Positions 1-56,295 of a stretch of 64,000 bases of DNA are shown here, one piece after another. The DNA is taken from IMG/VR virus record IMGVR_UViG_3300045988_065173, positions 13,917-77,916 of that record. One strand, 5' to 3'. The notes under the pieces were generated by a model. That model did not search any database. It was not told where the DNA came from and saw only the letters and a list, made by a program, of their open reading frames with translations. The translations under genes and the position numbers were made by a program. Position 1 is the stretch's first letter; every line of letters begins with the position of its first letter. Origin of the DNA: a virus.

Positions 1-197
1 ATATGAACATCTACAGATGACCCATCCTTTTTATATAACTTTAATGTTTCATCTTCGTATATTCCACTTTCAATTACATTATTATCTAATTCTTCTATGT
101 TCCTACTTATATAATCTTCTACTTCCATTCCAGAATGACCGTCCCATTCTGTTTCTAAGCTAGTAATTTGATTAGGTAAATCTTCAAATTTTGCCAT
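1..197 (-). CDS. hypothetical late protein; ATG at 197-195, 3' end runs off the window
   Basis: Minus-strand ATG at 197-195 followed by a stop-free frame to the window edge (MAKFEDLPNQITSLETEWDGHSG...). Confidence 0.4.
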   Translation of the reverse strand, partial: MAKFEDLPNQITSLETEWDGHSGMEVEDYISRNIEELDNNVIESGIYEDETLKLYKKDGSSVDVH

Positions 198-202
198 TGT
201 TT

Positions 203-428
203 CAAATTAATTATTTTTCCATAAATCATCTTTTAACCAGGGTCTATCAGGTAACCATGTACCGCTACCAAAACAGCTTCTAACAGCATCATATACGGTA
301 AGCCAGACTAACTACGACCCTTTATATATAGCTCCAATGTTTTTTTGTACTCTTTGCTATACTTGGTCTACAAGTTCTAGAATATCTTTCTGAACCTACA
401 ATATTAATTTACCATTTCTATATATCAT
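203..428 (-). CDS. small late protein; 4 in-frame TAG codons read as sense
   Basis: ATG at 428-426 overlaps the TGA of the upstream gene (ATGA overlap). Frame is open to a TAA at ~203 only if TAG is decoded. Confidence 0.4.
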
Positions 429-778
429 AATTTAGCAAAATCTTCTTTGACTTTGGCTTTAATCTCTTTTAATTTACTGAGATATTCTTTGTATTCCAGT
501 AAAGCTTCGGAATCCTCTGTAGGATTCTCTGTATAACTGTTGTATGAATTGATTAAATCAAATTCTTCATCAACAGTAAGAAAACTTCTAACAATTGCCT
601 TTACACAATCCTTATAATTAGGTTGTCCGCTAAGTAAAACCTAGATAAAGTTATACTAAAGCTCTAATTTAGTATCTCCTTCCTAGTCCGTTACTTCAGC
701 TTCGACTTCTTTTATATCATAGTTATAGTAATAAGTACCGTTCCCAAGTTTTTGGATTGTCTGGGGCTAAACGTCCAT
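425..778 (-). CDS. small late protein; 4 in-frame TAG codons
   Basis: ATG at 778-776 and TGA at 427-425. Translation is protein-like (…LLEYKEYLSKLKEIKAKVKEDFAKL) and is interrupted only by TAG. Confidence 0.4.
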
Positions 779-1979
779 TTGTATTCTATTCGGTTCTAAC
801 ATAAGGTGTTACTTTAAAATTTATAGGAAATTTGTATCTAAGCAAAGAATAATGTAATTTCTTATTCTTGCTTTTAAAATAATAGGGTTTGTTGTTATAC
901 ATAAAGTGCACTCTAAAATGGCTATGATAATCAACTACCTCTATAATGTGAATATACTTATTATAAAACTTAGATATATTGACTTCCTTTCCATTCCAAT
1001 TTGAGAACTTCAAACCAGTCAAAGTTTCTATCTTTTTCAACAAATTCTTAGAATTACAGAATTTCATCCATCCGAAATAAGATCTCATTCTTCTTTCCAA
1101 TTCTTCTCTATCAATCTTATTTTGCTTATATAGATTTATAAGCTTAAACATTCTCATTTTTATAGATTTTCTTAATAGAACGTGAGTGTGGTAAAATTTA
1201 TAGCCTACAAAATCTACTCCTCTACTTTCTACTGGAAATATCTAGTAGTTAGGTTTTAATTCTAAATTAAGAACTTGTTTTAAATACAGTTTTATAGATA
1301 CTAATACATTTCTCAAATAATTCTTGTCATTACCAAGAATCACAATATCGTCAGCATATCGAAAGTAGTACTTACATTTTAACTCCTCTTTTATCCAGTG
1401 GTCAAAATATGTCAGATATAAATTTGCAAAGAACTATGATAGATAGTTCCCAATAGGAACTCCTTTGGCTGAATATATTATTTCCTTCAATAGACTTAAC
1501 AGTTTCTTATCCTTTATTTTCTTCTACAACATCTCATACAGGATGTCATGTGTTATAGATGGATAAAATTTTCTTATATCCATTTTTAGACAGTATTTAG
1601 TTTCATCTGAGTATTTCTACAATACCTTGAATAAATCATACTCTACCTTATGAATCCCTCTATTTCTTATAGAGGAATATGTCTAATCTATAAAAATGCT
1701 GGTCCAGATAGGTTCCATAATATTCATTATAGCATGATGAGTGATTCTATCAGGGTAGTATGGAAGTCTAAAGATTAATCTTTCTTTAGGCTCATATATT
1801 ACAAACGTACTATACTCAGAAGTCTAATAGATTAACTATTTTAATTTGTCTGATAATTTCTTATTTTCTTCTAATCTATTCTTATCATGCTACTTAATAC
1901 CACATCGAATTGATTTATTTCTTCTAGCCTTATCATCAGCTAATTCGATGTTTTTCAAATCATACACTCGTTCGTGCAA
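723..1979 (-). CDS. DGR-type reverse transcriptase with ~11 in-frame TAG codons; alternative GTG/TTG start likely
   Basis: Hand translation of the minus strand gives IYEPKERLIFRLPYYPDRITHHAIMNIMEPIW…TYSSIRNRGIHKV…SQFFANLYL…FRYADDIVILG…VDFVGYKF (RT motifs 1-7 including YADD, DGR-RT-like N-terminal block). The standard-code ORF 786-1157 is only its C-terminal piece and its apparent stop at 788-786 is TAG. The frame continues to TAA at 725-723. An upstream in-frame TAA at 2003-2001 bounds the N-terminus, and there is no ATG before motif 1. Confidence 0.8.
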
Positions 1980-2140
1980 ATATCCTACACGTTTCAATTT
2001 TTATATATTTCATCGGAAGCTTTCGAGATTTAACCTACTAACACCCTTCATTTAACACTACGTTGTCTTTTGCCTAGAGGCAAGGATATCACTTAACAAA
2101 CTAAAAAAAATAAAATAAATTGTTCTAAATATATAATAAC

Positions 2141-2237
2141 TCAACATTGGAATTGGCATTGCTGACGTCATTGTTAGAATTGAAATAGCTAAGACCTGCA
2201 TTGCTACCATTATTCGCATTGCTGCCTACTAGCAGTT
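2141..2237 (-). repeat. DGR template repeat (TR)
   Basis: Minus-strand sequence gaactgctagtaggcagcAATgcgAATAATggtagcAATgcaggtcttagctatttcAATtctAACAATgacgtcagcAATgccAATtccAATgttgag. It is ~85% identical to the two VR copies, and every TR/VR mismatch has an adenine in this copy. In the target reading frame it is rich in AAT/AAC codons. Confidence 0.8.
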
Positions 2238-2310
2238 CTTTTTGCCAACCAACGGCTTTTAGAAGTAATATCCCACGATTTATATCTAAATCGATTTCTA
2301 TATTTTATTC

Positions 2311-4130
2311 TTAAGATACTCTGTTTAGAGTCCTGAACCCAACATAGGAACCGGCATAGCCGACGCCAAGGCCAGAATAGAAATAGCCAAGACCCGCAGT
2401 GCCACCAGAAGCCGCAGTGCCGCCCACCAGCAGCATGCGAAGCGCTGTAGAGCTAGCGTTGCAAGAGTGGTAATCACACATATAAGTTGTAGTTGAGGCT
2501 CCAGTACAAGAAGATGGTATAATCTCTGCTGTCTCTCCCAAGTCAAACTCTTTAATGTATCCATCTTGCGCTACCTCATATCCTGCTATGGTCTTGCTGC
2601 CAATTACGTCAGTAAACTCTTCCTTATTTGTGGTAGTATATACACTACTGATTTCATTTGCCGCAGTTCTTTGAATAACTACTCCATCTAAGTTTGTCCA
2701 AATATCTCCAAATGGATTGTCAAAACCTCTCCAACGTGGTACTTTGAAAGTGTGAGTAGCTACTGTATCTGTTCCGTTTGTTGCAGTACATTCTGGAATA
2801 ACTAAATCTTTGACTCCAGTGAAATTACCAATATCATTACAATAACCACATGGAGTAATAGGATAAGTTCCATTATATCCAGACCAACTTGTAGCAGAGT
2901 TACTCCAGTCTGTAACTCCAGGACCAAGTCCTCCTTGACGATAACCATCAGAGGTAAGCTCGGCATTGTAGGCAGCCTGAGAGTTAAAGTTAGCGTATTC
3001 TATTACATAGTTCCAGTAGAATATCCATTTATAATATTCATAACACAATAATTCAGAGCCTGCATTTGTGGCATAAGTTCTCATATTAGCTCTAGAAACA
3101 TTAGTTCTAGGTTTTCCTAAATCGCTTCTAAAAGCATCTTTGGTATCAAGTTCAGTAGTTAGATACTTATCGAATTGTACTCTATTTCCACCGCCTCTAA
3201 ATGCTTCTGTAGTATTGACCACGGACACAGCTTTAGGGGTTTCTGACACAGTATTGTCAACTGTATTTCTATATGCGTCAATTAATAGTTCTGGTATTTC
3301 TGCCCACGAATCATCAAGCTTTACTAGAGAAATTCTAACCCATCTTTTATTTCCATTAGAGCCTGATTTACCATAAAATTTAGGAGTGTGGACTCTTACA
3401 GTTCCATCAGTTCCATCAAGCACAGAAGGAGTAATTCCATCTTCTTTGTAAGCCCAATCGTCTGGATATAAATAGTAATTTACTACACCGTTATTTGCTA
3501 CACATCCTCTGTAAGCAGACTAAATAGGAAGGGATTTATGTAACAGTGGATTTCCTATTCTAGTAAGGATAGGAGAAGATACAGTGATGTCCCATTCTAC
3601 TCCATAAGAGTATAAGTCTACGTTACTGCTTAACTCTGTGACTTGTTTGCTTAGACTCTATTGTTCTTTTTGTAATTCTTCCCAAGCAGTATTAAGAGCA
3701 TCAAATTGTTCCTCTAACTTAGTACTAGTATCTGCCCACTATGCAGTCCCATCTTCAGAAAAGGTTAAAATCTATCCAAGTGCTCCTCCAGCAGGTATGT
3801 GTTTATTTCCAGAAGTAGTTGGGTGTACATAATTATTTGCATTATCTGCAATACCACTAAGTTTCTGTTTTTCAGTTTCTGTGTAATTAGCTTCAGAAAG
3901 TCCTTTTCCTGATTCCTTATCTACCTTACTTTCCAACTCCGTTTTAGTAGCTAAACCACTTATATCCTAGTGTTCTTTTAAATAATTTTCATCATTCTAT
4001 AACTAAGACACTTTAGTTGGAATGGCACTAGATTTTGCGTATGTCTAATCTATAGCATTTCCAGAGCCATCATAGGTAGCCTTTAAGTCATATACGGTTT
4101 CTCCAACCTTTATAGATTTGATAGCTGCCA
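2311..4130 (-). CDS. tail fibre / receptor-binding protein, DGR target 1; ~8 in-frame TAG codons
   Basis: ATG at 4130-4128 right after the TAA of the upstream gene. N-terminus MAAIKSIKVGETVYDLKATYDGSGN…KVDKESGKGLSEANYTETEKQKLSGIADNANNYVHPTTSGNKHIPAGGALG(Q)ILTFSEDGTA(Q)WAD carries the widespread phage tail-fibre motif, with TAG at positions that are Q/E in that motif. The standard-code ORF 2311-3423 (370 aa, GTG start) is only the C-terminal part. An in-frame TAG sits at 3522-3520. VR1 lies at the C-terminus. Confidence 0.7.
2338..2436 (-). repeat. DGR variable repeat VR1 (C-terminal 33 codons of the tail-fibre gene)
   Basis: Aligned by hand to the TR. All ~15 mismatches are at TR adenines (c,g,t in VR versus a in TR). 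Confidence 0.8.
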
Positions 4131-4132
4131 TA

Positions 4133-7100
4133 TTATTGTATTATTAAAGTTTCTTCTTCTACATTATGATCTATTCTTTCTATGGAGGCAGTTAAGTCTT
4201 CAACAGCTTTCTACAGTTCAGCCTTGGTAGCGTAGTTCTTTAATGTATCTGGGTCTATTCCAGATCCTCCTACATTTCCTCCAACAACTTTTACTGGTTT
4301 TGCTGAGTTCTTAAACTACCCTTCAACCCAAATTGTTCCCATACTATTTAAAATATTAATTGTTCATTTTCTCCATCTACCTGTACATTACCAGAACCAG
4401 GCTATATTGCATCTATTTTCTTCTACAATTCGTCTACAGCAGCCTTTATTAATCCTTCCACCTCAGCTTTTGTATAGTAACGTTCTGTTAGATATTCACT
4501 TCTGACATATCCTGTATCCTATATATCTTTTTCTCCATAAGTACAATAGTACGTATCGTTCTCTGTCCTATTATTTTCAACTAGGTCATCATAATCTGTT
4601 TGTGGAAGACATACCAATTTAGGAACCTCTTCTGTAAGAGCAACTTGCTTTCCAGATGCTAATAATCTATCGTCTTCTGTAGTAAGTTTAACAGAACTTT
4701 CAATAGTCTGTTCAGTTGTTTCATCTTCTGAACTTTCTCCAGTTGTTCTCTATTGTACTTCTTTTTCGACAATTTTCTAAATAGTAATATCAGAAGTTTC
4801 TATAGAGGTTGATTTTAGAAGCTCTGTGCTAAATTCCTTAGAAGCGGCATCCTAATCTTCCTAATATTTCTTCTAAGTAACAAATATAAAATCGTCATCA
4901 CCGGTTTCAGGAGAATCTCCTCTCAAACTTTCTTTTGTCACATACTCCTCTGCTATCTAATTGGAAAGGTCAGTTAATGACTATTGAGTGGCGTATGTAG
5001 ATTGAGCATTTTCTTTTGTAAGAAACTTTTCATCTACCTACGAGCTAGTGTAGTATGCTTTAATATCTTCTGTAGTAACGTAGCTTCCTAGTTTCTATAA
5101 ACCAGAAACAATTTCATCAATCTATGTCTTTGAGTAATAATTAGTAGCAACCCAGGACTAATACTGATGTGTAGTATGGTAATTTTGATCTAAGTACTCC
5201 TTAGTAATATAGACTTTAGCATCATTTGTTACATCATACACATAGTAATATGTGTCAGGTTCTATAGCATCCTCTTCTACCAGTCTTAAATATTCCTCTT
5301 CAGTTAATGTAACCAGATTAGGAACATCTGACATCATGGCGAATTGGTCTTCTCCAACAAACAACCCATTAGATTTAACATCTACTACTAGCTAATCCTC
5401 TTCTCCTACTACTGGAGACTTTATCTATCCTACAGTAATACTTTCTAGGGAACCATCTCCATCTACCTTTAAAGTCTTATCTAGCTCATCTTGGATAGCC
5501 TATTGGTCTTCGTCATACTATTTCTTTGTAACAAAGACAAAATCATCTCCTTCCATTCCTTCTCCTCTAAGACTTTCTTTGGTAACAAATATGTCATCAG
5601 TTTCTTCCTTAGTGTAATGGTTAGACAAGGCTTTAGATAACAAGGATTCTGGGTCCTCTAAATCTAGGTCAGTTTTAGGGGCATAATTCTCAGTTAATTC
5701 TTCAAGGGTAGCATACTTGGAAAGGTTAGAGATTGTCTAGTCTAAATCCGTTCTAATCTGTACGACAGTAGTATTTAGAGCTTTCTATTTCAACTATTCC
5801 TCTATCTTTTTACCCCATTCTGCTGATAAATAAAACTAATCATCATCTAGGCTGTCTTCATATATGTAATAATATGTTTCTGCATGAAGATATGTTTTAC
5901 CTTCGTCTATAGGTTTAAAATCTTCTGTGGTATTCTCAGACCATTCCTTATATTCAGCCTCTGTACAGGTGATTATCTAAATAGATTCATAAGAAGCTTT
6001 CCAACCTTCTTTGTATTTAATCTTAGACTTATCTACTAACATATAAATATTTCCGTTATCTATATTTGAAACGGTCATGCCTTGATAAGCATATTTCTCC
6101 GGAATAGAATATAATTCGTCTAAATTATTGACTACTGTTCTATTATCAAGAGGTTTAGGAGTTTCTACGGTTAAAGCAACACCTAATGTAGCATCACCTG
6201 TATATTTAAATGCCATTATTGTGATAAAGTAAAGTTAATTTGATGAGGCAATGCTGAAGAATAAGTATCCTTCTTAGTCCATACTTTATAAGGAAATCCA
6301 TTTATCTATTCGGTAGAAGTTTCCCAGCCACTTAAATCAACATTTAAGTATCCCAGTCCTCCATCTACTGTAAATGAATTTAGCTAAGTATTACTTCCGG
6401 GTAATTTTATAATAGCCTTTCCACTTAATGAAAATGTAATAATTCCAGAAGATTGTCCAAATGGAACAAGACTCTATTTGATTAAACTATCTGTATTACC
6501 AGAATACCAAGGGTAGGTAGCAGTCACCTATGCTGTAGTTGATATTGAACCAGCTTCCACCCTCTTGTCTGTAGTTTCTCCTTTATTGTTAATAAGATAT
6601 TCTCCAGCAGCATAATTTACAGTACCAGAATGCACATAAACACCAATAGAATCATATATTTCAGATTCTACAGGAGAATCATTATAGGTAATAGTTTCTT
6701 CTCTATCAGTTTCCTCTCCAGCATCATTTTTTATAAATGTTAAGGTAGGGGTAAGTAAAGCGGATCCTACCTCCACAATCTAAGAGGTGAAGCTATAATA
6801 CAACTAAGGATAAACCAAATCTCTAACAACAGTAGGAAATAATAGAGTATCTATAATCTCATTAAACGGCTTTCCTTTCAATTTTTCAACTGTAGTTCCT
6901 TGAATAACAGCAGAAGTGGTATCATCTGGAAGTTCAGTTTGATAAGTAGCTATAGTTTCTAAACTTGTCTATATATTTGTGATATTCTCAGTATTAGAAT
7001 CTACTTTAGAATCAGTGTTCTTCTAAGCTTCCTATACTCCCTTAACTTCTTCCTTTACCTCTGTTAGAGATGGTTCCAGGTCTTTTACATATATTCCAGG

Positions 7101-10100
7101 TAGGACTACTGTAGAAGGCTCTCCTTCCTCCTCTACTGGAGGAATTTCCTACTAAATAAGATGTATTGCGTTATCCTCCTACTAGGATAGAATTACTTCT
7201 AGAGTATTATCATCCTTTATTTCTATGGTTTTGGAGTTTCTTAGACTATTAGTTATCCAATTCTAGATGTTTTTGTCAACATCTATATTTTTGATAGACT
7301 CGTTAATACCCTCTATTGCCTCATTAATCTCGACTATTTTCTCAGAAAGATTGTTTATGCCAGTTCTGTTAGATTCAATTTCTTCTTCAAGTTCTTCCTT
7401 AAGTACAGTAATAGAAGTTCTGATATTACTTATATCAACTTTTATTTCCTCTATTTCTTCTGTATTAGCTTTGTACTAACTTATAAAGAATAAAGCATAA
7501 TCTAAGGCATCTTTTACAGTATTGATATTCTCTGCAACATCACTAGTATAAGTCCATTTCTATTCTATGTACTATACTAAATCTTTCTAGGCTTCTATAG
7601 TTCCTTCTATATTTCCCCAAAGAAGACTCTACTCATCAGCGATACCTAGATTCTTTCTAACCTTAGCTCTTTCTAATTCAGTTCTATATTCTCCAAGATA
7701 GTTGTTTCTTAGGAGAGGTATAGGTTCACTTTTTATTAAATGTCCTTTCTTTCCACAAGGCTTTATATCAGCATTGCTTACCGAAGTGTAAATAGGCTGT
7801 ATCATTATGATTCAATAATTGCTATTTAATAAATTCGTGATTATCTAATTTTACGGGTAGGTTAATAAAACAAATTAGATTCAAAATATCCTAATAATCT
7901 GGTCTATATCCCTTTCTAACCCTTTTAAGGAAATCCTCATACCTTTTAATAGCCTTTCTTTTAAGAGCATCCACAACCTATACGTTTATGTTCATGGTGA
8001 TTGTCACAGAATCCACCGCAAGTGCGGAACATTGCTAACAATCTTTCAGCTTCCATGAATTGTTTAAAGCCTATTAAATAATCTATAATATTAAGTGTCA
8101 TCCAGATAAAATCTCTTGCAAATATATCTGCATCATGTTCTCTAGTTAGACACTTATTTAATAAAAAGTCAAAGAGTTTCTTACAGTAGTTAATATAACA
8201 CTATTGCAGATTTCCTGTAAAGAACACATCTACCTTACATTTTTTGATAGTAGTCCCTTCTATATTCCTTTCAAGGATTTCTTTTACAGTACATTCCTCT
8301 AGCTCTCCATCTACTTCTTTATATAGTTTCTCTCCATCAGTTATATAGATAGTTTCATAATACTCCTTGTATTCATCAGATGAATTTTCATACCATTTCA
8401 TATTAGGAAGAATTATGTGGTCTACTACATAATATCCATCTTCTTTTACCTTAAATGTACAAGAGTCTAAATCCTCTGTATGGTCATTGAGAAGTACGTC
8501 TATCAAAGTAGCATCTCCTATACTAACTTTTATGATAGTATTTAGGGTAGCACTTTCACTATACTTATAAGAATCATAGGAAGTTACTACCTCTAAATCT
8601 TCATCAATATACTATCCATATTCCTTTGAAAAGTCTTCAATAGTTATTTCCCCGTTAATCTGGGTATGTATATCAATACTAAATTCCATATTATAATAAT
8701 TAAGACTCAGTAGTAGGCCATTGACCATATTGAGCAGGGATAGAAAATGGTTTCCACTTACCTTCTTGTCGTATACGTCTAGACATAAAAACTGAACTAA
8801 ATGATAAACTAATATCTTGAGGATAGTCTGTCCATGTATATGACTAACCTTCAGGAGTCGGTGGTAGACTATTTAACTTACCAGCTGGTTCCCCATTCCA
8901 ATAATAATTATAGTCATATGCTTTAGTTGGAGTAACAGTTGTTGTTTCATGTCCTTCCGAATCTACATATAGAGGATTTCCCTCCTCATCTGTTTTCTAC
9001 TTATACTCAATAACTGGAGTTATTCCCTCAGTTCTAGTGTATATGTTCTAAATAATAGTAGAAACATCACTTGCTACAATCTCATAAATAGTAGTTCCCT
9101 GAGATTCGTCAGCTCCCTAGAAAGTAAATTTAGTTCTTTTCCAGATGTATGGATTCTCTTCAGTTGGAAGTTCAAAAGTATCAGTCCACTATTTATTAGA
9201 TAATTTTATCTCAGATTCGTCAGCAGTGTCAGCAGGTAAGTAATGAATCTTAATAATAATATTATTTACCGCCTCACTAGAACCAGAAAGGTCTGACACC
9301 TATTTAAATAGTTTCTTTAAATCTTCTTCCACATTTGATTTGGAACCAGAAGCATTACTAATAATTACTGAACCATCTGAAATAGGATAAATCTATTGCT
9401 AATCCTTATCATATACAATTGTTCCAGTTGCCATATTAATGTATTTGTCTTATTTTGTCATTATACGGATTTCCATCATGAAGCTAAGCCAACTCTATTT
9501 CAGTTCTCTTTTCTTCTATATCCATTTGTCTATCTTTATATGTAGAATCAGATTGAGCTTTGAGCCAGTTAACCTTATATTCTAACTATATTTTCTGCTA
9601 CTCTAATCCTAATCTCTATTCATCCAAGCTTTCTATCTTCTACTAAGCTTTCTATAGTTCTTGCTATAACTGCTGTGCCTATTGTGAAGTTTCTTCCAAT
9701 TTTTCCTATAGCTGCTATAGCTAATTGTTTTCTTCTTTACGAATCTATACTGCTTTCTTAACCTTATATTTAAGGTCTGTAAGACTCTTAGCAGTTAGTG
9801 CCTCAAATATAATGTCAGGATCCATTTGCTGACTTTTAACAAACTCTGGAATAATAGCTTTAATAGTTTGTAAATCTTCCATTACTTCAGAGCTAGAAGT
9901 TATATGGATGTCATAATCAGTAACCGTAAAATATTCTGGAAGCGCTGTAAATATCTGCTGGTATTTATCTCCAAGTATAATAGTACCAGTCAATCCTTTC
10001 TTATATGTTATTTTAGCCTAGTTTAGACTGTCCAATAATATCTCACAAGTGATCAGATCCATCTACTAGAAATAATGCTTGGTTACTATGTAAGAGTTAG

Positions 10101-11540
10101 TAACACCTTGCTTAATATTAGTTACAGCATCATGAGTTTCTATTCCATTTAATCTTTCTCTAAATACTCCAGTTATAGATGATGTAGTTTGTTCTACTGA
10201 TTGAATTGCTAATTCAATAGCCTATACAGCCTAAGCTTTTAAGGTATCATCAAATCCATTGTATATCTAGTTAGGTGCTTGCGCTCCATCATTTCTTCCC
10301 TCCTAAGTGGAATCAATCCACATGATACCACCCTTCTTGTATGCTAACCATTTCTACACTCTTTCTGGCCATTTTACGCCTAGGTTAGTAGGAAGCAATG
10401 ACATATCCATGATTACTCCAGCAGTACCGCTGTTAGCTATCAGGTTGTCCCTATAATAATTTAACAAGTCATATCTATCCTATAGATGTGCACATTTTAA
10501 TATCAGGGAGTATGGTTGTTGAGAACGATTTAAGAAATATACCCCATTTACAGACAAAGAGCAGAAATTAGGATTATCTTTTGACCTCATAACAGTCTTG
10601 TCTAGACCTCTCAGAATATATATTTCTTCTCCAATTCTAATGGTATTGTATCTCTACATTACAAAATCGTCATCAGTTTCTATCCACTCTACATCATAAA
10701 CAGGAATTAACTAAAATCTATGAGCACTATATTCATTATCTGGATATCCAGGAATAGTTTCATGATTCTAGTCTTCATTTACTATAGTACAAGTGTCACC
10801 ATAAACTCTTCTATAAACTGCAGCTGAATCATCGGCTCTCCATTCATCTTTTAGTCTTTTCAAATCTTCTCTAGAGATTTCTTTTCCGTATTTAGCTAAT
10901 ATCTAGCTTTTACTCATCCATTTTCTAACTACTACTCTATACGAATTTTTAACATATGGAGATTCTGGATTCCTATCTACGAAAGTATTTAAAGGATTCA
11001 GAACTTCTATTTCTATGTTAGTTCCAGAAGATGATGATTTTACTCTGAAAAATGTATAGCCAGTAATTAATAAATCTGTAAGTAACTATCGGAGTTTAGT
11101 TATTAAATCGGTTTCTCTAGACTGCATGATATAATGAATAATATTCTATGCAGCTATCTCATATTGAGAAATAAAAGACTAATCAATGTCTTGAATAATT
11201 TTATCTAACTAAGTCTTCACGGCTTTATCTGTAATATCTTTTCCGTCGATAAATTTCAGAATAGAATTACTTAAATGGTCTCTAAGAAATTTAACTATCC
11301 CTTTAGTTATTTCCAACTATTTTTCTCTGGTGATATTACTAATGGTATCTGAATCCTTACAAGAAATCTTCGGAAGGATAGGGGTTCCTAGATATTCCCC
11401 TACTAGAGCATCTACGTGCTTCTTTAGTAATGGTGTAAATTCTACAGAAGTAGGACTACCTATTCCGAAGTTTTCTTCCAGGTAACGAAACTATTCTGGA
11501 TCTCTCTTTCCGTTGTAGTAATTATAGGCTTTCTATAATT
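4133..11540 (-). other. late structural gene block (head/tail/portal genes presumed); minus-strand coding with TAG as sense, individual genes not resolved
   Basis: Dense minus-strand coding signal but only short standard-code ORFs (5158-5364, 5977-6216, 6528-6776, 8201-8506, 9745-9993). Every checked interruption is 'cta' on the plus strand, i.e. TAG on the minus strand. Confidence 0.5.
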
Positions 11541-11548
11541 CGTACTTA

Positions 11549-14165
11549 TCATATACAAGCTCCGCAATAGCCTCGTTCGTCTTGTCTATCAGTTCTTTTT
11601 CTTTCATAACATAAATTATGCTGTTCTGGAGGAAGTTTAGTTGCATTATAGTATTTAACTCTTTGTAACTTCCTACTTCTTAATTCTTCCTTTATAAATG
11701 GGAGAAATTCTTCATCAGGTAAATCAGCTATAATGACTAAAGGCATCTCTGACCTATCAAAGTTAAATGATACCTTATAACCAACTGGATCTAGGTTCTG
11801 AATTTCAAGCCCACCTACGTATTCCATTTTGTACAAGTCTCTCATATAACCTAGGATCACTTGTTTCAATTCTGTATGGGTCATCGTATTCATTTTTTTG
11901 TATGTTAGTTTCAAAAGTCTTAGAAGTTGGTATAACCCCAAATCTTTTGATTCCTCTCTCGTCGTAATAATAACCATAATCTTGGAATTGTTCAACTTCT
12001 TTTTCAACAAGCACTGGCTATCTTCCTGACAATTCCTAGTCTGCCAATTCTGTCATTCCTACAGCGGCTACAATATCGAATTTACCTTTATTCTCATCAT
12101 TATATCCAGTAAATTGGTCTAACATTTCTTCAAACCATATAGTATGACAGAAATCCTCAATAAAGGCTGCTGTCAAATCAGTATGTTGTTCTATAATAGT
12201 TTTGGTAGCGGGTGTTCCGTACTATTTAGTAGTTCCATTCTTGACGTCTGTTAGAGTAGCTCTAGGTCTTTTCATAAAGTAGTTTAAACAACCCTTTTCT
12301 CTAGCCCAGGTAATCATACCTACACGAGTAGCTTCTATGTTTATTCTACAATTATAGTATCTAGCTAAACACATAGCTATTTTATAGGCTTCTCTAATGT
12401 CATTAGGTCTGTCTTTATACATAGCAACATACTACGGTTCGTTTAGACCAAATGCTCTTCTTTTTATAGTTATACAGAAATCAGAAGGGTCTCTTGTTTC
12501 TTTTGAAGTTTGACTAGCTCCTATATCAATGCCGTCTATTCCTGCAACATATAAATCATGCATTTCTTTATACGCTGGAGATTCAAATTCTTCTCCCCTT
12601 TCCTCAGCTTCCTATCTAAGTTTATCCATCTACTCTTTATACAAATCAGACCATACAGGATGTTCAAGTATTTTTACTTTTCCGTTAATATTAGGAATCC
12701 ATTTAAAACCATCTATATTATCCTAGGTGTGTTTATTATTTTTATAGAAGTAGTCTATGTATCCAGATTCTGGTCTTGGTCCTATTTTCTTAAGTCTTAT
12801 ATTAGCTAATTGGTCTGCAATAAGAATCTTGTTGAACTTGTTAACACCTTCAAGATTAAATGCTTCTTCTGCATTCCAACATCGTTCGGCACACTTCTTT
12901 AGATAGTCGTCTGGAACTGCTAATAAATTGTCACGCTCTTCCTATAGATACTTTTTATATTCTACTGTATTACACACACCTCTATGGTCCATGTATTCTG
13001 AATTTAGAGACTAGACAAAATATGGAATGAAGAACCCACTTTCAATAGTAGTCCCATCCTGTGTATAATTATGTCTAAATGGAAGAACTTTGTAAGCTTT
13101 TGGATTATAATATATTTTCTTAAGACCTGCTAATGGAGCACCCATATCACCACCAGTACCTCCAAATAACATTGTTCCACGAGGTTTACCCTGAACTTCA
13201 CAAAGCTCTTGTCCCTGCACTACAGCAGTATCTAGTCCAGGCCAAGACCCTGCTTCATCATATATTAATAGGTCAACACGGTCTCCACGAATATTAGATG
13301 CCTTAGCTCCATTTATTCCAACTACTTCTGATTTAAACCCAACATCCTCAAACTGCCCGTTTACCTTAATCTGTTTACCGGACTTCTTTCTTAAGTCTTG
13401 GTCAATCAAACGTAGTTTGAAGAATCCTCCTCCTGTACAAGTATTCAAGAATGTTAAAGCATTATCAAACTTACTAAAAGTACCTTTAAGGAAGGTATCA
13501 TTAAAACAAGTAATCATTACTCTGCTTCTTCTGATTACTGAATACATTCTTGCAGATAAGGATGCATTTATTTCAGAGAATCCAATAGAACGAGCTTTCA
13601 TGAGAGCTGCGTGTTTATGCAGGACTCTAGCCATCTATAGATAATGAAAGAACATATAATGAGATGCGAAAAATATAGGAAAGTCACTACTTGTTCCTTC
13701 TCCAGATGCCTTGTTATCATCAATAATAGGAAGCTAGTAGAAGTTTAGGAAGAAATAGTTATCTCCAGTAATTGTATAACCATTAACAGTCATTCCATAT
13801 TTACATCTTCTATACTATTCCTTCCAAAACTCATTATATCTCTTACTATCTTTTAGATATGGACAATACTTTCCAGTTTTTCTATATACTTCTCTGGTCT
13901 CAGTAAACCAATCTGGGTCGAAGTCAAGACCGTGTGTTTCATCTATTGGTCTATATCCAGTTATTTCATAAGATAAAGTAGGGTCAAATACCTCTATCTT
14001 ATCTCCTCTTTTTACATCCCAATAATCAGCATTTTTGCCTCTTTCCTCTCTTATCTTCTATACTAGTTCTCTAGCTTCTTTGGCATCCTCTTTTTGTTCT
14101 TTCTCTCTTACCTAATCTACTATATTCTAGATTTCTTCAGGTAATATTTTTTTCTTTCTAGGCAT
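11549..14165 (-). CDS. terL: terminase large subunit (TerL), multiple in-frame TAG codons; boundaries approximate
   Basis: ATPase-domain fragment 13011-13634 has a Walker-B-like DLLIYDEAG and a Walker-A-like LMKARSIGFS. The frame reads through TAG at 13013-13011 into nuclease-domain fragments (12222-12422, 11549-12010), and also upstream through TAG at 13637-13635 to an ATG near 14165. Confidence 0.6.
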
Positions 14166-15547
14166 AATTAAAAGTCTCCTGGGTCAAAGCCGTCTATAGC
14201 TCCACCTCTTACAGTAGATTGTTCTGTAAGCTCTTTCTTAACCTGCTCTTCTAGTGTTACTAATTCTTCATGAACTTTATGAAGAGTAGCCATTTCTTTC
14301 ATTACCTTTTCAGCTTGAAAGACGGGTTTGCCATTATTATCACGTTCATTTAAATCTACTATAGTATCAAAATAATCAATAAACTAGTCAGCTGCTCTTT
14401 TAGCTGCTTCTAGAAGTTTTATTGATTTGTTAGAATCCTATAATGCTCGGTATTTTCTACAGGCTTCCCTGAATAATGGGTCATTAAATTCGGATTCAGA
14501 TAGTCCAGAGTCGCTAATAGCCTCATCATGTCTTTCATGTTCTGAATATTGGCTATAAGGACTCTTCCAATCAATAGCTAGATAAATGTAAGATAATTCT
14601 CTAGTTACTCGTTCCTTGTCAACAGATTTATCTCTCTGTATCAAAGCCTTAAACTCTTTAACTAGAAGAAGCTCTGGTTCATTTATTTCTAACTATTTAG
14701 TTAAAGTGTTATAATTAAATACATTCATACTCATCAATCATTAACATTAACATCTTTAATCTTTTTATTTCATTTTAGAACCGCATTTACTTACTTTCAT
14801 TTTAGAACCACAAGAATCCTTCTTAGCATACTTTGTTCTATCTGGAACCCATTTTCCATTTTTAAAGTTTCCTTTATGTCCCTTATTTGCCATGACCTCC
14901 TAGTCATTATATTTATTAATAGATACAGAATCTCTAGATGCTTCATCCTTTGCAGATTTCATATCCTTTCTATACTAAGCTCTTCCAGCCTTGAACTTGT
15001 CGACCTCATTAGCTTTCTTAGTAACCTTAGTTCCTTTCTATGCTTTTTGGCAAGCTTTGCAGATTCTTCCTCCCTGTTTAAAATAAACAAGTTCCTCTCC
15101 TTCTGGGCATACTCCTTTTAATTTTTTATAGTATTCTAGTTTAGCTCCAAGTCTAGCCATAACTCCGCCTTGCATCTTCTACATAAATTCTTGATACTTA
15201 GCTTTAATTCCATCTTCTCCAAGCTATTCAGCGTAAGCCTATAAATCTTGCTCTGATTGTAATTGTATTCCTTGTGCTTGGGCATCTTGTATCAAGTATG
15301 CCATGAATGCCTTCCGTAATTCTTCCTAATTAGCCATTACTCTTCTACTTTAATTAAATCCTTTGTATTAAATACTGCTTCCTGCATTAATCCAGAATCA
15401 GTAAACCATCTACATCTTAGTCCTCGTAATCCTTGGTTATCTTTAAATAAAGCTGCTTCTCTTCTTAGAACAAGCATAACTGGAGAGTGCATTACTTTAC
15501 ACTACCGTAAAGTAACACAATCCCCAGGCTTAAAATAAACTTTTTCA

Positions 15548-18331: not shown

Positions 18332-18382
18332 TAATTAAAGAGGTAATTAAAACAATTGTAGTAACTAAATATAGAATTACTT

Positions 18383-18847
18383 ATGAGTTGGTTTTCTGAA
18401 TTATTTACTTTGGCGGGCAGTCTTTTTAAAGATATTGATTAGAAAGAAGAACCTAAATTAATCTAGATGAAGTATTTTCCGTTTAATGGATTTTCTTATA
18501 TGTCTTGGTGCGGAAATATTATTTATAAAAAAGATAGATATGCTAATATAAAAGAATAGTCTTTGTGGCATGAGAAGATTCATATTCTATAGGCAGCTAA
18601 GAGTTATAAGAGATGGTATTAGTTCTATTTAAGCTATCTTAAATACTGGATTAAAGGTAATCCTATTAGTAATCCTTCTATTAGTGCTTACTATACTATT
18701 CCTTATGAAATGGAAGCCTATGCTAATGAGGACAATCCTAATTACTAGGTAACTAAAGATAGTTATAAAAGATATATTATAAAAGATAGAAAGAATACTT
18801 TTAGAAAGAACAGAAGTAATTGGATTAAGTTTATTAAATAGTTATAA
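18383..18847 (+). CDS. HExxH-motif protein (putative metallopeptidase-like); 6 in-frame TAG codons
   Basis: MSWFSELFTLAGSLFKDID(Q)KEEPKLI(Q)MKYFPFNGFSYMSWCGNIIYKKDRYANIKE(Q)SLWHEKIHIL(Q)AAKSY… contains a WHEKIH (HExxH) motif. Stop codon is TAA. Confidence 0.45.
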
Positions 18848-19811: not shown

Positions 19812-19883
19812 AATTTTGGCGTTGCCCTACTAGGATTCGAACCCAGACTAAATGATTTAGAGTCATCTGTGCTGACCATTACA
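19812..19883 (-). tRNA. tRNA-Sup(CTA), amber suppressor, glutamine-like
   Basis: Minus-strand sequence tgccctatggtgtaatggtcagcacaGATGActCTAaaTCATTtagtctgggttcgaatcctagtagggcaa. Full cloverleaf with anticodon loop c-u-CUA-a-a. The acceptor, D and T arms are near-identical to tRNA-Gln(TTG) at 33768-33839, including U1-A72. Confidence 0.85.
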
Positions 19884-19949
19884 CCATAGGGCAGTAACTT
19901 ATTTCTCTTTTAGAGATTTATTTTCTGCTGCCAATTTCTCTAGTTCTTT

Positions 19950-20432
19950 TCTTAATTGTTCATTTTCGTGAAATAAAGCCTGCATAGTAGCGTTGATATT
20001 AGCTAATAGTATTCTCATTTGAGCAACCTATTCATACATAAGCTTTCAGTTGTTCAATTCTCTTTTTAGCTATATCTGACAATGCCATTTTAAATTTAGC
20101 AATACCAGCTCTTACTGATTCCAATTTTCCACTTTCCAAACATTCTTGAATTTTATTCAATTCGGACTCTCCTAGATATTCGCAGACATCTATAAATAAA
20201 TCATCATCTAAAGATTCTAAGTATTTCTGGAATTTGCCTACTTCTTCATTAGCTAGACAGCTTTCCTCTTTCTATCTTTCATAAGATATTAATAAGAATA
20301 AAGAATCATCTGTGGATTCCGCTTTAATGGTTAGACCATTACTTGATAGATAATACTCCTAGTTCTTATTAATTGCATCAACGAGATTCTTAAACTCGTC
20401 CTAATTTAGTAATGTTTCTAAGTCTGTAATCA
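19950..20432 (-). CDS. first gene of the late transcription unit; several in-frame TAG codons
   Basis: ATG at 20432-20430 (MITDLETLLN(TAG)DEFKNLVDAINKN(TAG)EYY…). Frame is open to TGA at 19952-19950 only when TAG is read through. Confidence 0.45.
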
Positions 20433-20483
20433 TAATTGTTTCTTTTTTAGTTATATACAACAATACCTTCTGAAAAGTTAAAT

Positions 20484-54853: not shown

Positions 54854-55268
54854 CCATCCATTCGGAAAAGAGGCTTGCAAGAAGCGACTATTAGAAGAGT
54901 ATAAAAAATACGGAAAGCTAATAGTCGCTTTCGATTATGACAACACTATTTTTGACTACCATAATAATGGAGGAGACTATAGTTGTGTCGTCAACTTATT
55001 GAGACATTGTACTATGCTAGGTTTTGAAATGATTTTATTTTCCACTGAAGAAGATGAAGATAGAATTATAGAGAAACAAGTGGAGTGTGTTCAAATGAGG
55101 GTAGGGAATCTTATCAATGATATGATCATACCTCCCTTTACAAGTAGTAGACTATTCCCAAATTCTAAAAAGCCCTATTATAATATTTTACTGGATGATA
55201 GAGCAGGCTTAGAAGAAAGTTACGAAATTTTAAAATATGTTGTAGATGAAATTATTAAACTTAATTAA
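54831..55268 (+). CDS. HAD-superfamily hydrolase
   Basis: LIVAFDYDNTIFDY is the DxDxT motif I. The start is taken at an internal Met to avoid overlap with nadV. Confidence 0.5.
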   Translation, partial: KGFMESFNHPFGKEACKKRLLEEYKKYGKLIVAFDYDNTIFDYHNNGGDYSCVVNLLRHCTMLGFEMILFSTEEDEDRIIEKQVECVQMRVGNLINDMIIPPFTSSRLFPNSKKPYYNILLDDRAGLEESYEILKYVVDEIIKLN

Positions 55269-56058
55269 CTTGGACAAGAGTGAGATTAAGTATAACCTCA
55301 CTAGATTTCCTGACGGAGAACCTCAGATAAGTTTTCCTGACGAATTTGATAGGAAAGATTCAGTAAAGGTTATATGTAGAATTACTTCTGCTGAAGAATT
55401 ATTTATTCTAACTCAAGTCGGAGACATTCTTGATAGACAAGAGATTGAGTGGGATTTGTTTATTACCTATCTAATGTCTATGCGTATGGATAGAGTAATG
55501 GACTTTAACCGACCATTTTCTCTAAAAGTGGTTTGTAGTATCTTGAATACTATGAACTATCGTTATATTATGATTTTGGAACCTCATTCGGAAAGAACTA
55601 AGGGATTGTTAGGAACTAGATGCTATCCTCAAAAGTTTAACTTTGAATCGCATTTGGATGTTCAATCTAATATTGTATTTCCAGATGCTGGAGCTTACCA
55701 AAGGTACAAAATTCTCTCTAATAATTGGGGACATATTGTGTTCAATAAGGTGAGAGATTTGGAAACTGGTAAGATTAAGGAGTTTTCCATTGGAAGAGAG
55801 GTTAATTGTTATTATCCGACCTTTACTTTTATTGATGATTTGTGTGACGCTGGAGGAACATTCCTTGGGGAGCTTAAAGTTCTTAAAGAGAGATATCCAG
55901 ACTCTAAATTCGAGATTATAGTTTGTCATGCTGTAAATATCAAAGGCTTGGTAAAGCTGTGTAACAATTTTGATCGTGTTATAATAACTAATTCATATTG
56001 TGATTATGGATATAAGCCTAGTAATAATAATTTAACAGTGATAGATGTATGCGGATAG
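55246..56058 (+). CDS. prs: ribose-phosphate pyrophosphokinase (PRPP synthetase)
   Basis: FIDDLCDAGGTF is the PRPP-binding loop (DDxxDTGGT-like). Ends TAG-TAA. Confidence 0.7.
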   Translation: MKLLNLINLDKSEIKYNLTRFPDGEPQISFPDEFDRKDSVKVICRITSAEELFILTQVGDILDRQEIEWDLFITYLMSMRMDRVMDFNRPFSLKVVCSILNTMNYRYIMILEPHSERTKGLLGTRCYPQKFNFESHLDVQSNIVFPDAGAYQRYKILSNNWGHIVFNKVRDLETGKIKEFSIGREVNCYYPTFTFIDDLCDAGGTFLGELKVLKERYPDSKFEIIVCHAVNIKGLVKLCNNFDRVIITNSYCDYGYKPSNNNLTVIDVCG

Positions 56059-56295
56059 TAATTTAAAAAGAGATGGTAATTGAAGGTCCATTTTACAGGT
56101 TAACCCCAATTAACGATTCATCTCCTCGTTTCGACTTGGAGTTGTTATGTGATATTGGTGGTAAAAATCCGAGAAAAGAGTTTAAGGTAGTAGGATATGG
56201 ATTCCTGCTAGAATCTGCAGTGGAGAGATGTATCCACTATGCAGTTAGAAGAAAATTCGGAAAAGATGAAATTGTAACTTTAGGTAAGTACTTGG

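Follow-up and report, generated by a model that had tools for sequence, protein, structure and literature searches.

The window analysed in this study, a stretch of 64,000 nucleotides, carries on its minus strand a block of structural and packaging genes rich in in-frame TAG codons, in which a tail protein gene ending in a variable repeat (VR), a template repeat (TR), a spacer and a reverse transcriptase (RT) gene make up a DGR. The positions of these features, of the individual TAG codons of the RT gene and of the relevant tRNA genes are compiled in Table 1, where codons are compared across six orthologous loci (L001/L002, L003, L004, L005, L006 and L007).

Table 1. Positions of the DGR, the in-frame TAG codons of its RT gene and associated features in the window (TAG codons are numbered along the RT gene)
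Feature	Position	Strand	Remarks
TAG-recoded structural/packaging block (TerL, portal, tail proteins, DGR)	1..15349	-	131 TAG versus 104 CAA+CAG codons in ORFs
117-aa acidic protein	425..778	-	phrog_11557; pI 4.4; 4 TAGs; downstream of RT
DGR reverse transcriptase CDS	723..1997	-	424 codons plus stop when TAG is read as Gln; colinear with full-length homologues
TAA, true stop of RT	723..725	-	same TAA ends the gene in L001, L004, L005 and L006
TAG codon 404	786..788	-	AAG in L003, L004 and L007; TAG in L001, L005 and L006
TAG codon 252 (NYQIFPV)	1242..1244	-	CAA in five orthologues; TAG in L005
TAG codon 188, Q of IGNYLSQ	1434..1436	-	TAG in L004, L005 and L006; CAA in L001 and L003; CAG in L007
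TAG codon 158	1524..1526	-	TAG in L001, L004 and L005; CAA in L003
TAG codon 127	1617..1619	-	TAG in L001 and L006; CAG in L003
TAG codon 105	1683..1685	-	CAA/CAG in L001, L004, L005 and L007; TAG in L006
TAG codon 58	1824..1826	-	CAA or CAG in L001, L004, L005 and L006
TAG codon 54	1836..1838	-	variable site; D, N or K in orthologues
TAG codon 36	1890..1892	-	CAG in L001, CAA in L005, AAA/AAG elsewhere
TTG start codon of RT	1995..1997	-	aligns with M1 of MKRIGYLHE in most homologues
TR-RT spacer	1998..2137	-	140 nt; conserved sequence block in alignment of 7 loci
Template repeat (TR)	2138..2235	-	98 nt, 30 adenines
DGR target gene (tail protein)	2311..4131	-	phrog_5302 tail protein, 1.8e-84; 8 in-frame TAGs
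Variable repeat (VR)	2336..2433	-	3' end of target gene; 24 mismatches to TR
Amber suppressor tRNA(CUA) 'supA'	19821..19893	-	ARAGORN; Rfam tRNA model 66 bits; upstream of recoded block
Second tRNA(CUA) 'supB'	23289..23359	+	ARAGORN; Rfam tRNA model 60 bits; 58% identical to tRNA-Gln
Phage tRNA-Gln(UUG)	33768..33840	+	closest relative of supA in window

Read as an open reading frame, the minus strand from position 1997 down to 723 contains no TAA or TGA codon and nine TAG codons, and under the standard code the same region splits into pieces of at most 123 aa. In this window of 35% GC, approximately 4.8% of the codons counted over all six frames are TAA or TGA, and the chance of a run of 425 codons devoid of both is roughly 1e-9, while TAG is present in the RT gene at its background rate of 2.1%; the reading frame is thus real and TAG alone is tolerated inside it. 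When TAG was treated as X, the product matched Pfam RVT_1 (4e-18) and PHROG 1423 'reverse transcriptase' (1e-107), and among solved structures the top match by sequence was the Bordetella phage DGR RT 8ub7 (1.6e-43). The latter was also ranked first by Foldseek (E 4.5e-22) using an AlphaFold model of the orthologue P0001, which is 92% identical to the RT of the window (mean pLDDT 80.9). The catalytic YADD occupies codons 214-217, between TAG 188 and TAG 252. With TAG read as Gln, the dN/dS ratio of the gene is 0.043 relative to L001, 0.037 relative to L004 and 0.065 relative to L005, and the RT gene is under strong purifying selection. The proposal in an earlier note on this DNA that the RT gene is written in the recoded dialect is therefore substantiated, and the alignment with TAG as X, which it had suggested, places the product among RTs of the DGR type, with Gln aligned to TAG sites; its estimate of some eleven in-frame TAG codons, on the other hand, is to be reduced to nine.

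Both ends of the gene required revision. The earlier note had remarked that the ORF lacks an ATG upstream of motif 1 and had suggested a GTG or TTG start; this is upheld as regards the absence of the ATG and the use of TTG, which is however located at 1997..1995, 18 nt upstream of the end coordinate 1979 given there. TTG is likewise the start codon in L001, L003, L004, L005 and L007, and ATG that in L006. An ATG at 2013..2011 was considered as an alternative start and rejected, since its frame differs from that of the RT gene both in the window and in L005; an upstream ATG is in frame with the TTG in L001 and L004 only, the sequence just upstream of the TTG being different. The run of adenines preceding the RT start measures five nucleotides in the window, six in L005 and seven in L001, and L004 has five adenines and two extra thymines. 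At the opposite end, the TAG at 788..786, which had been taken as the apparent stop, was rejected as such. The 20 codons that follow it (NTNGRLAPDNPKTWERYLLL) are kept in P0001-P0007 and P0014, the conserved tail running to the TAA at 725..723, and in L004, where the TAG is replaced by AAG (Lys), the gene ends at the same TAA. Such differences in the reading of the start codon and of TAG explain why this one protein figures in public gene calls with lengths of 334, 406 or 430 aa.

The identity of the residue specified by TAG can be deduced from the orthologues. The window TAG sites 36, 58, 105, 127, 158, 188 and 252 alternate with CAA or CAG across them, and in the TAG-free orthologues 4/9 and 3/9 of the window TAG sites are occupied by Gln, as against approximately 0.2 expected from a Gln content of 2.2%. 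The columns of codons 188 and 252 are invariantly Gln in 35 homologues, the former aligning with Q187 and the latter with a Gln of the Bordetella enzyme (bRT). The TAG codons lying in frame in each RT orthologue amount to four in L001/L002, seven in L004, nine in L005, five in L006 and zero in both L003 and L007. The RT gene of the window has eleven Gln codons (nine TAG, two CAA and no CAG), giving an overall Gln content that is normal. Judged from these alignments, TAG in the RT gene means Gln.

The window encodes 24 tRNA genes, two of which were found by ARAGORN to have a CUA anticodon. One of these, supA, has 78% identity with the tRNA-Gln(UUG) of the phage; the two agree in their D and T arms and in the U1:A72 pair, a resemblance which indicates that supA is derived from tRNA-Gln. 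The second, supB, is not Gln-like by overall identity, yet the U1:A72 pair is common to supA, supB and tRNA-Gln. A tRNA(CUA) of tRNA-Gln origin would carry Gln, presumably through the action of the host GlnRS as is the case for E. coli supE, and once charged with Gln would decode the TAG codons of the RT gene.

The TAG at codon 188 merits consideration since it falls within a signature motif of the enzyme. The RT motif I-G-N-Y-L-S-TAG becomes [I/V/L]GxxxSQ if TAG is Gln, and it is this form that characterises DGR RTs, while the SP version (QGxxxSP) is that of RTs from group II introns and retroviruses (PMC7826257); either form can be recognised when the product is aligned to solved structures. 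The earlier note correctly located the TAG (S-TAG-FFANLYL) but expected S-P-L at this point, whereas DGR RTs have SQ, and reading TAG as Gln consequently gives the residue diagnostic of DGR RTs, with no proline being replaced. It had further argued that the decoded residue matters for function. Gln is indeed invariant in the family, but the Q187P substitution in BPP-1 left the misincorporation frequency at adenines unchanged (PMC7826257), and we conclude that Gln 188 is conserved while the case for its importance in function is weaker than first claimed.

The repeats provide information on the activity of the element. Mismatches between TR and VR are confined to adenine positions of the TR, with adenine/non-adenine counts of 24/0 in the window, 23/0 in L001, 18/0 in L004 and 21/0 in L005. 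The TRs of the different lineages also differ at non-adenine positions (4, 8 and 4 sites), and all of these substitutions (16/16) are mirrored in the cognate VR, which implies that transfer from TR to VR continued after the lineages had split, in phages whose RT genes carry TAG. Based on this co-variation of TR and VR between lineages, the retroelement appears to be complete and to have been active. The TAG codons of the target gene are all situated in its N-terminal third, and a Pfam scan identified no domain in the target gene product. Mutagenesis at the adenines of the TR codons (AAT, AAC, AGC and others) yields neither a stop codon nor TAG, and recoding can for this reason proceed without interaction with the VR.

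Additional components of the cassette were sought in the sequences adjoining the RT gene. RNAalifold predicted 16 pairs in the spacer between TR and RT across seven loci, none of them (0) compensatory, and thus no covarying RNA structure was found there. The gene of the 117-aa protein overlaps the 3' end of the RT gene by 56 nt and is syntenic in L001, L004 and L005. Avd was searched for among the small ORFs flanking the RT gene using PHROGs and Pfam and was not found, and neither was an HRDC-type protein: none of the small proteins had a Pfam match and their sole PHROG match was to phrog_11557, for which a function is not annotated. Avd is common but not universal in DGR cassettes, and its absence does not, therefore, exclude membership of the DGRs.

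Within the recoded block, TerL and portal were assigned by PHROGs. The plus-strand block that extends from approximately 20.6 kb onwards consists of well-defined ORFs without internal TAG and encodes an SF2 helicase, NAMPT and a radical SAM protein, together with a DnaB-like ATPase recognised by eye. The boundary between the early and late codes is not perfectly clean, since TAG occurs in a gene at 20032..20433, upstream of supA and sharing its strand, and the plus strand too has a few ORFs rich in TAG. An ORF at 22813..23223 with seven TAG codons was examined as a possible recoded plus-strand gene and turned out to be a RAGATH-14 RNA. A 'code-change module' of release factor and aminoacyl-tRNA synthetase genes was not encountered among the 20 window proteins scanned, a set from which the smaller plus-strand ORFs were left out.

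The consequences of this arrangement for expression can be outlined as follows. The RT cannot be made unless TAG is read, since TAG occurs as early as codon 36, ahead of the catalytic residues, and in this respect, given the two tRNA(CUA) genes, the requirement for amber suppression put forward in the earlier note holds. The yield of full-length RT would scale with approximately the ninth power of the per-codon suppression efficiency, amounting to about 39% at an efficiency of 0.9 and 0.2% at 0.5, and since it would fall so steeply, functional RT would be absent until the suppressor is abundant. The same dependence on the suppressor would apply to TerL, portal, the tail proteins and the DGR target. 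That diversification would in this way be coupled to the late phase, as had also been proposed, is in keeping with the position of the RT gene in a TAG-rich structural block opposite a TAG-free block on the other strand; a coupling peculiar to the RT finds no support. It is plausible that late-phase coupling is a property of the recoded block and not of the RT itself, and it is best seen as a by-product, because the RT gene sits in the recoded late module. Late expression gated by suppression is a model for recoded phages in general (10.1101/2021.08.26.457843; PMC7886860), so the timing hypothesis is already in the literature and no new principle emerges here.

Taking the above findings together, we consider it highly probable that the locus encodes an intact and active DGR RT of a large (~184 kb), probably Zeta-group crAss-like phage of the gut, the late module of which is written in code 15 with TAG as Gln. 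Three other explanations were weighed against this one. The first, which we regard as unlikely, holds that the TAG load of the RT gene, with the TAG in the catalytic-core motif included, was itself selected as a means of confining mutagenic retrohoming to the late phase or of adjusting its dosage, over and above the effect of operon placement. No other gene of the block has so large a part of its Gln codons written as TAG (9/11 in the RT gene), 7/9 of the TAG codons of the RT gene fall within its first 45%, invariant Gln positions are written as TAG in several orthologues, and the yield would follow the ninth-power relationship described above. The proportion of 9/11 is, however, not significantly higher than the 131/235 of the block (binomial p about 0.07, calculated by hand), and per codon TAG is less frequent in the RT gene (2.1%) than in the portal gene (4.4%) and in the tail protein genes (about 3.6%). 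Moreover, the orthologues range from zero to nine TAG codons at shifting sites, the exchanges being mostly synonymous swaps between CAR and TAG, and L003 and L007, which use the standard code in the stretch sequenced, retain the order of target, TR and RT, the TR of L007 being normal and adenine-rich.

Secondly, decoding might be mixed or might involve a residue other than Gln, either because supB inserts a different amino acid or because TAG 404 acts as a leaky stop, with RT isoforms (403/424 aa; SQ/SX) as the outcome. This would accommodate the presence of two dissimilar tRNA(CUA) genes, the acceptance of K, E, D and N at variable TAG sites in orthologues, and the properties of the residues past 404, which are modelled at a pLDDT of 50-63 and overlap the next gene. 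Yet Gln occupies sites 188 and 252 in all homologues that lack TAG, both tRNA(CUA) genes have the U1:A72 pair of the phage tRNA-Gln, the gene of L004, with Lys at 404, terminates at the TAA used in the window, and the last 20 residues are conserved as protein, and we deem this explanation very unlikely. A composite of these two proposals, whereby the amber load of the RT gene represents a selected dosage or timing gate for mutagenic retrohoming to which supB may add variants of the SQ motif, is likewise distinctly improbable. If such a gate existed, TR-derived cDNA would be produced only at saturating suppressor levels, that is, late and with many genome copies present, and lineages would tune the activity of their DGR through the gain or loss of TAG codons, the orthologues ranging from none to nine.

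Thirdly, the notion that the TAG codons are nonsense mutations in a decaying RT pseudogene of a dead DGR, to which the 123-aa limit of the longest standard-code piece might lend some appeal and for which the earlier note would have had the TAG positions correspond to the termini of homologues, is scarcely credible in view of 425 codons free of TAA, TGA or frameshift, a dN/dS of 0.04-0.07, TAG sites that align with Gln instead of protein termini, neighbouring essential genes (TerL and portal) that bear TAG likewise, and a purely adenine-type TR/VR pair with homing after divergence.

Concerning the origin of the phage, the RT is 73% identical to P0012 (DAN43601.1), for which a cluster member lies on a contig of 184,175 bp, and the closest homologues of the RT come from contigs about 184 kb in length. 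To crAss-like RTs it shows an identity of 49-59%, and the TerL is 42-45% identical to those of unannotated gut phage contigs and 26-29% identical to crAss-like TerL. A megablast search of the phage collection with positions 1-12000 of the window returned no near-identical record. On the basis of the 184-kb homologue contigs and the identity to DAN43601.1, the phage probably belongs to the Zeta group of crAss-like phages. DGRs have been described in 18/43 Zeta crAss-like genomes, and DGR-positive genomes of 182-189 kb with a GC content of ~35% and a CTA-suppressor are reported (PMC12386605). The published Zeta RTs (PMC12386605, Int J Mol Sci 2025) have the GxxxSQ motif and in-frame TAG codons in common with the window RT. 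The arrangement in the structural block is also the same, comprising a tail-fibre target, TR and RT in this order and without Avd, which was present in only two of the Zeta phages, as are the GC content of about 35%, the complement of about 24 tRNAs and the presence of a tRNA(CUA) (PMC12386605). In contrast, the longest RT in that collection is 414 aa (PMC12386605), as compared to 424 aa for the window RT with its TTG start and ninth TAG.

A comparable system was reported for the ~99.6-kb code-15 Bacteroides crAss-like 'persister' phages, where an RT with multiple in-frame TAG codons adjoins a recoded tail-protein target with a changing VR (10.1101/2023.08.07.552389). The RTs even share stretches of sequence, EPKERIIFKLPYYPDRIVHHAIMNILEPIW there corresponding to EPKERLIFRLPYYPDRITHHAIMNIMEPIW in the window, although the lineage and genome size are different and the change of the VR was directly observed in a time series (10.1101/2023.08.07.552389), whereas the activity of the window element is deduced from TR/VR co-variation. 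Amber-recoded DGR RTs of crAss-like phages have thus already been published (2023, 2025), and the window represents a further instance.

The prototype with a solved structure, the bRT of BPP-1 (8ub7), is the best match both by sequence and by structure, with the [I/V/L]GxxxSQ and YxDD motifs, and BPP-1 shares the adenine-specific TR-to-VR mutagenesis and a TR-RT spacer of about 140 nt. The identity is nevertheless only about 33%, and bRT is written in the standard code, is 328 aa long and needs Avd, while the window RT has an additional C-terminal region of ~95 aa, rich in beta-strands according to the P0001 model, and no Avd gene nearby. With respect to the code itself, crAss-like phages, a 145-192 kb group among them, were previously described as using TAG for Gln in their late genes (Yutin 2021, PMC7886860), and Gln decoding in other crAss-like phages has been addressed by proteomics (PMC9523058). 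The window agrees with the code-15 phages of these reports in using TAG for Gln mainly in structural genes, with standard-code early genes and a suppressor tRNA, and there is no essential difference between it and the late-gene recoding described for them (PMC7886860; 10.1101/2021.08.26.457843; PMC9523058).

The reading of the locus as an intact DGR RT in a code-15 late module has implications for the detection and study of such elements. Gene callers that apply the standard code or favour ATG break or truncate RTs of this kind, and because they split a 424-aa protein in this manner, as the divergent database entries for it illustrate, DGR finders can miss recoded RTs. The natural orthologues, with between zero and nine TAG codons, constitute a built-in comparison, and the locus is a clear and well-controlled case of a code-15 phage in which even the catalytic signature residue of the DGR RT is written as TAG.

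The start of the RT gene is bordered by an upstream ATG that lies out of the RT frame in the window, where a 5-nt A-run comes after it. This run extends to 6 nt in the orthologous locus L005 and to 7 nt in L001, while the orthologous locus L004 carries two extra Ts behind a 5-nt run, and only in L001 and L004 is the ATG in the RT frame. Since the frame of this codon varies among loci, the RT has been called as 430-, 406- and 334-aa versions. Between the template repeat (TR) and the RT start, three identical or near-identical blocks emerged when seven loci, with RT identities of 71-92% to that of the window, were aligned. This spacer may play a functional part in the DGR RNA; compensatory covariation was sought in the seven-locus alignment and none was found.

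Features discussed in this section (window positions unless a locus is named)
Feature	Position	Strand	Detail
Upstream ATG	2013..2011	-	A-run follows, within 1998-2013
Conserved spacer block	within 1998-2100	-	CCTTGCC-NNNN-GGCAAAA
Conserved spacer block	within 1998-2100	-	AACGTAGT
Conserved spacer block	within 1998-2100	-	GGGTGTTAGTAGGTTAA-N-TCTCGAA
RT C-terminal extension	723-1010	-	residues ~330-424
RT/downstream gene overlap	723-778	-	last 56 nt of RT gene
117-aa gene	425-778	-	conserved; frame differs from RT
ORF	18365-18847	+	7 TAGs, 0 CAA/CAG, HExxH motif
ORF	20032-20433	-	3 TAGs; upstream of supA (Gln-derived tRNA(CUA)), same strand
ORF	38122-38913	+	8 TAGs
ORF	36346-37122	+	TAG 2 codons ahead of closing TAA
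ORF	55234-56061	+	TAG 2 codons ahead of closing TAA
RAGATH-14 RNA	23042-23233	+	150.2 bits vs gathering score 149.1
supB, second amber suppressor tRNA	23289-23359	+	directly downstream of RAGATH-14 RNA
Pistol self-cleaving ribozyme	23692-23765	+	62.3 bits; ~330 nt downstream of supB
L006 RT	L006:3001-4269		TAG at codon aligned to window residue 388
L003 TR position	L003:5755-5852		98 nt
L003 VR	L003:5553-5650		

At its other end, the RT bears a C-terminal extension of approximately 95 aa which the RT of Bordetella phage BPP-1 (8ub7) lacks, and which is predicted, in the model of an orthologue, to fold as a small domain rich in beta-strands (pLDDT ~85), after which comes a tail modelled with low confidence. 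Avd is absent from the DGR cassette of the window. The end of the RT gene also encodes the start of the 117-aa gene, an overlap that recurs in L001, L004 and L005. In the RT, the TAG of the L006 orthologue occupies a site that is Tyr (TAT/TAC) in all other orthologues, and would represent either substitution of Gln for Tyr or a true nonsense variant.

TAG-rich ORFs also occur beyond the main recoded block, so the two codes do not meet at a clean boundary. Two further ORFs, delimited stop-to-stop with only TAA and TGA taken as stops, look like genes of the standard-code block that end at a TAG with a TAA as backup. Because RAGATH-14 RNA and a Pistol ribozyme flank supB, processing of its transcript in association with ribozymes is suggested.

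In L003, a standard-code relative, the sequence at the TR position contains no adenines and differs from its own variable repeat (VR) at 13 positions, all non-adenine; the related L007 possesses a normal TR with 31 adenines. From these sequences, mutagenised cDNA appears to have replaced the original TR of L003, in which case the DGR of this locus would be frozen. TAG is absent, whether internally or as a stop, from all eight complete called genes of this 13-kb locus, each of which terminates in TAA or TGA, and on this codon usage the locus is in a TAG-depleted state, the proposed precursor of recoding.
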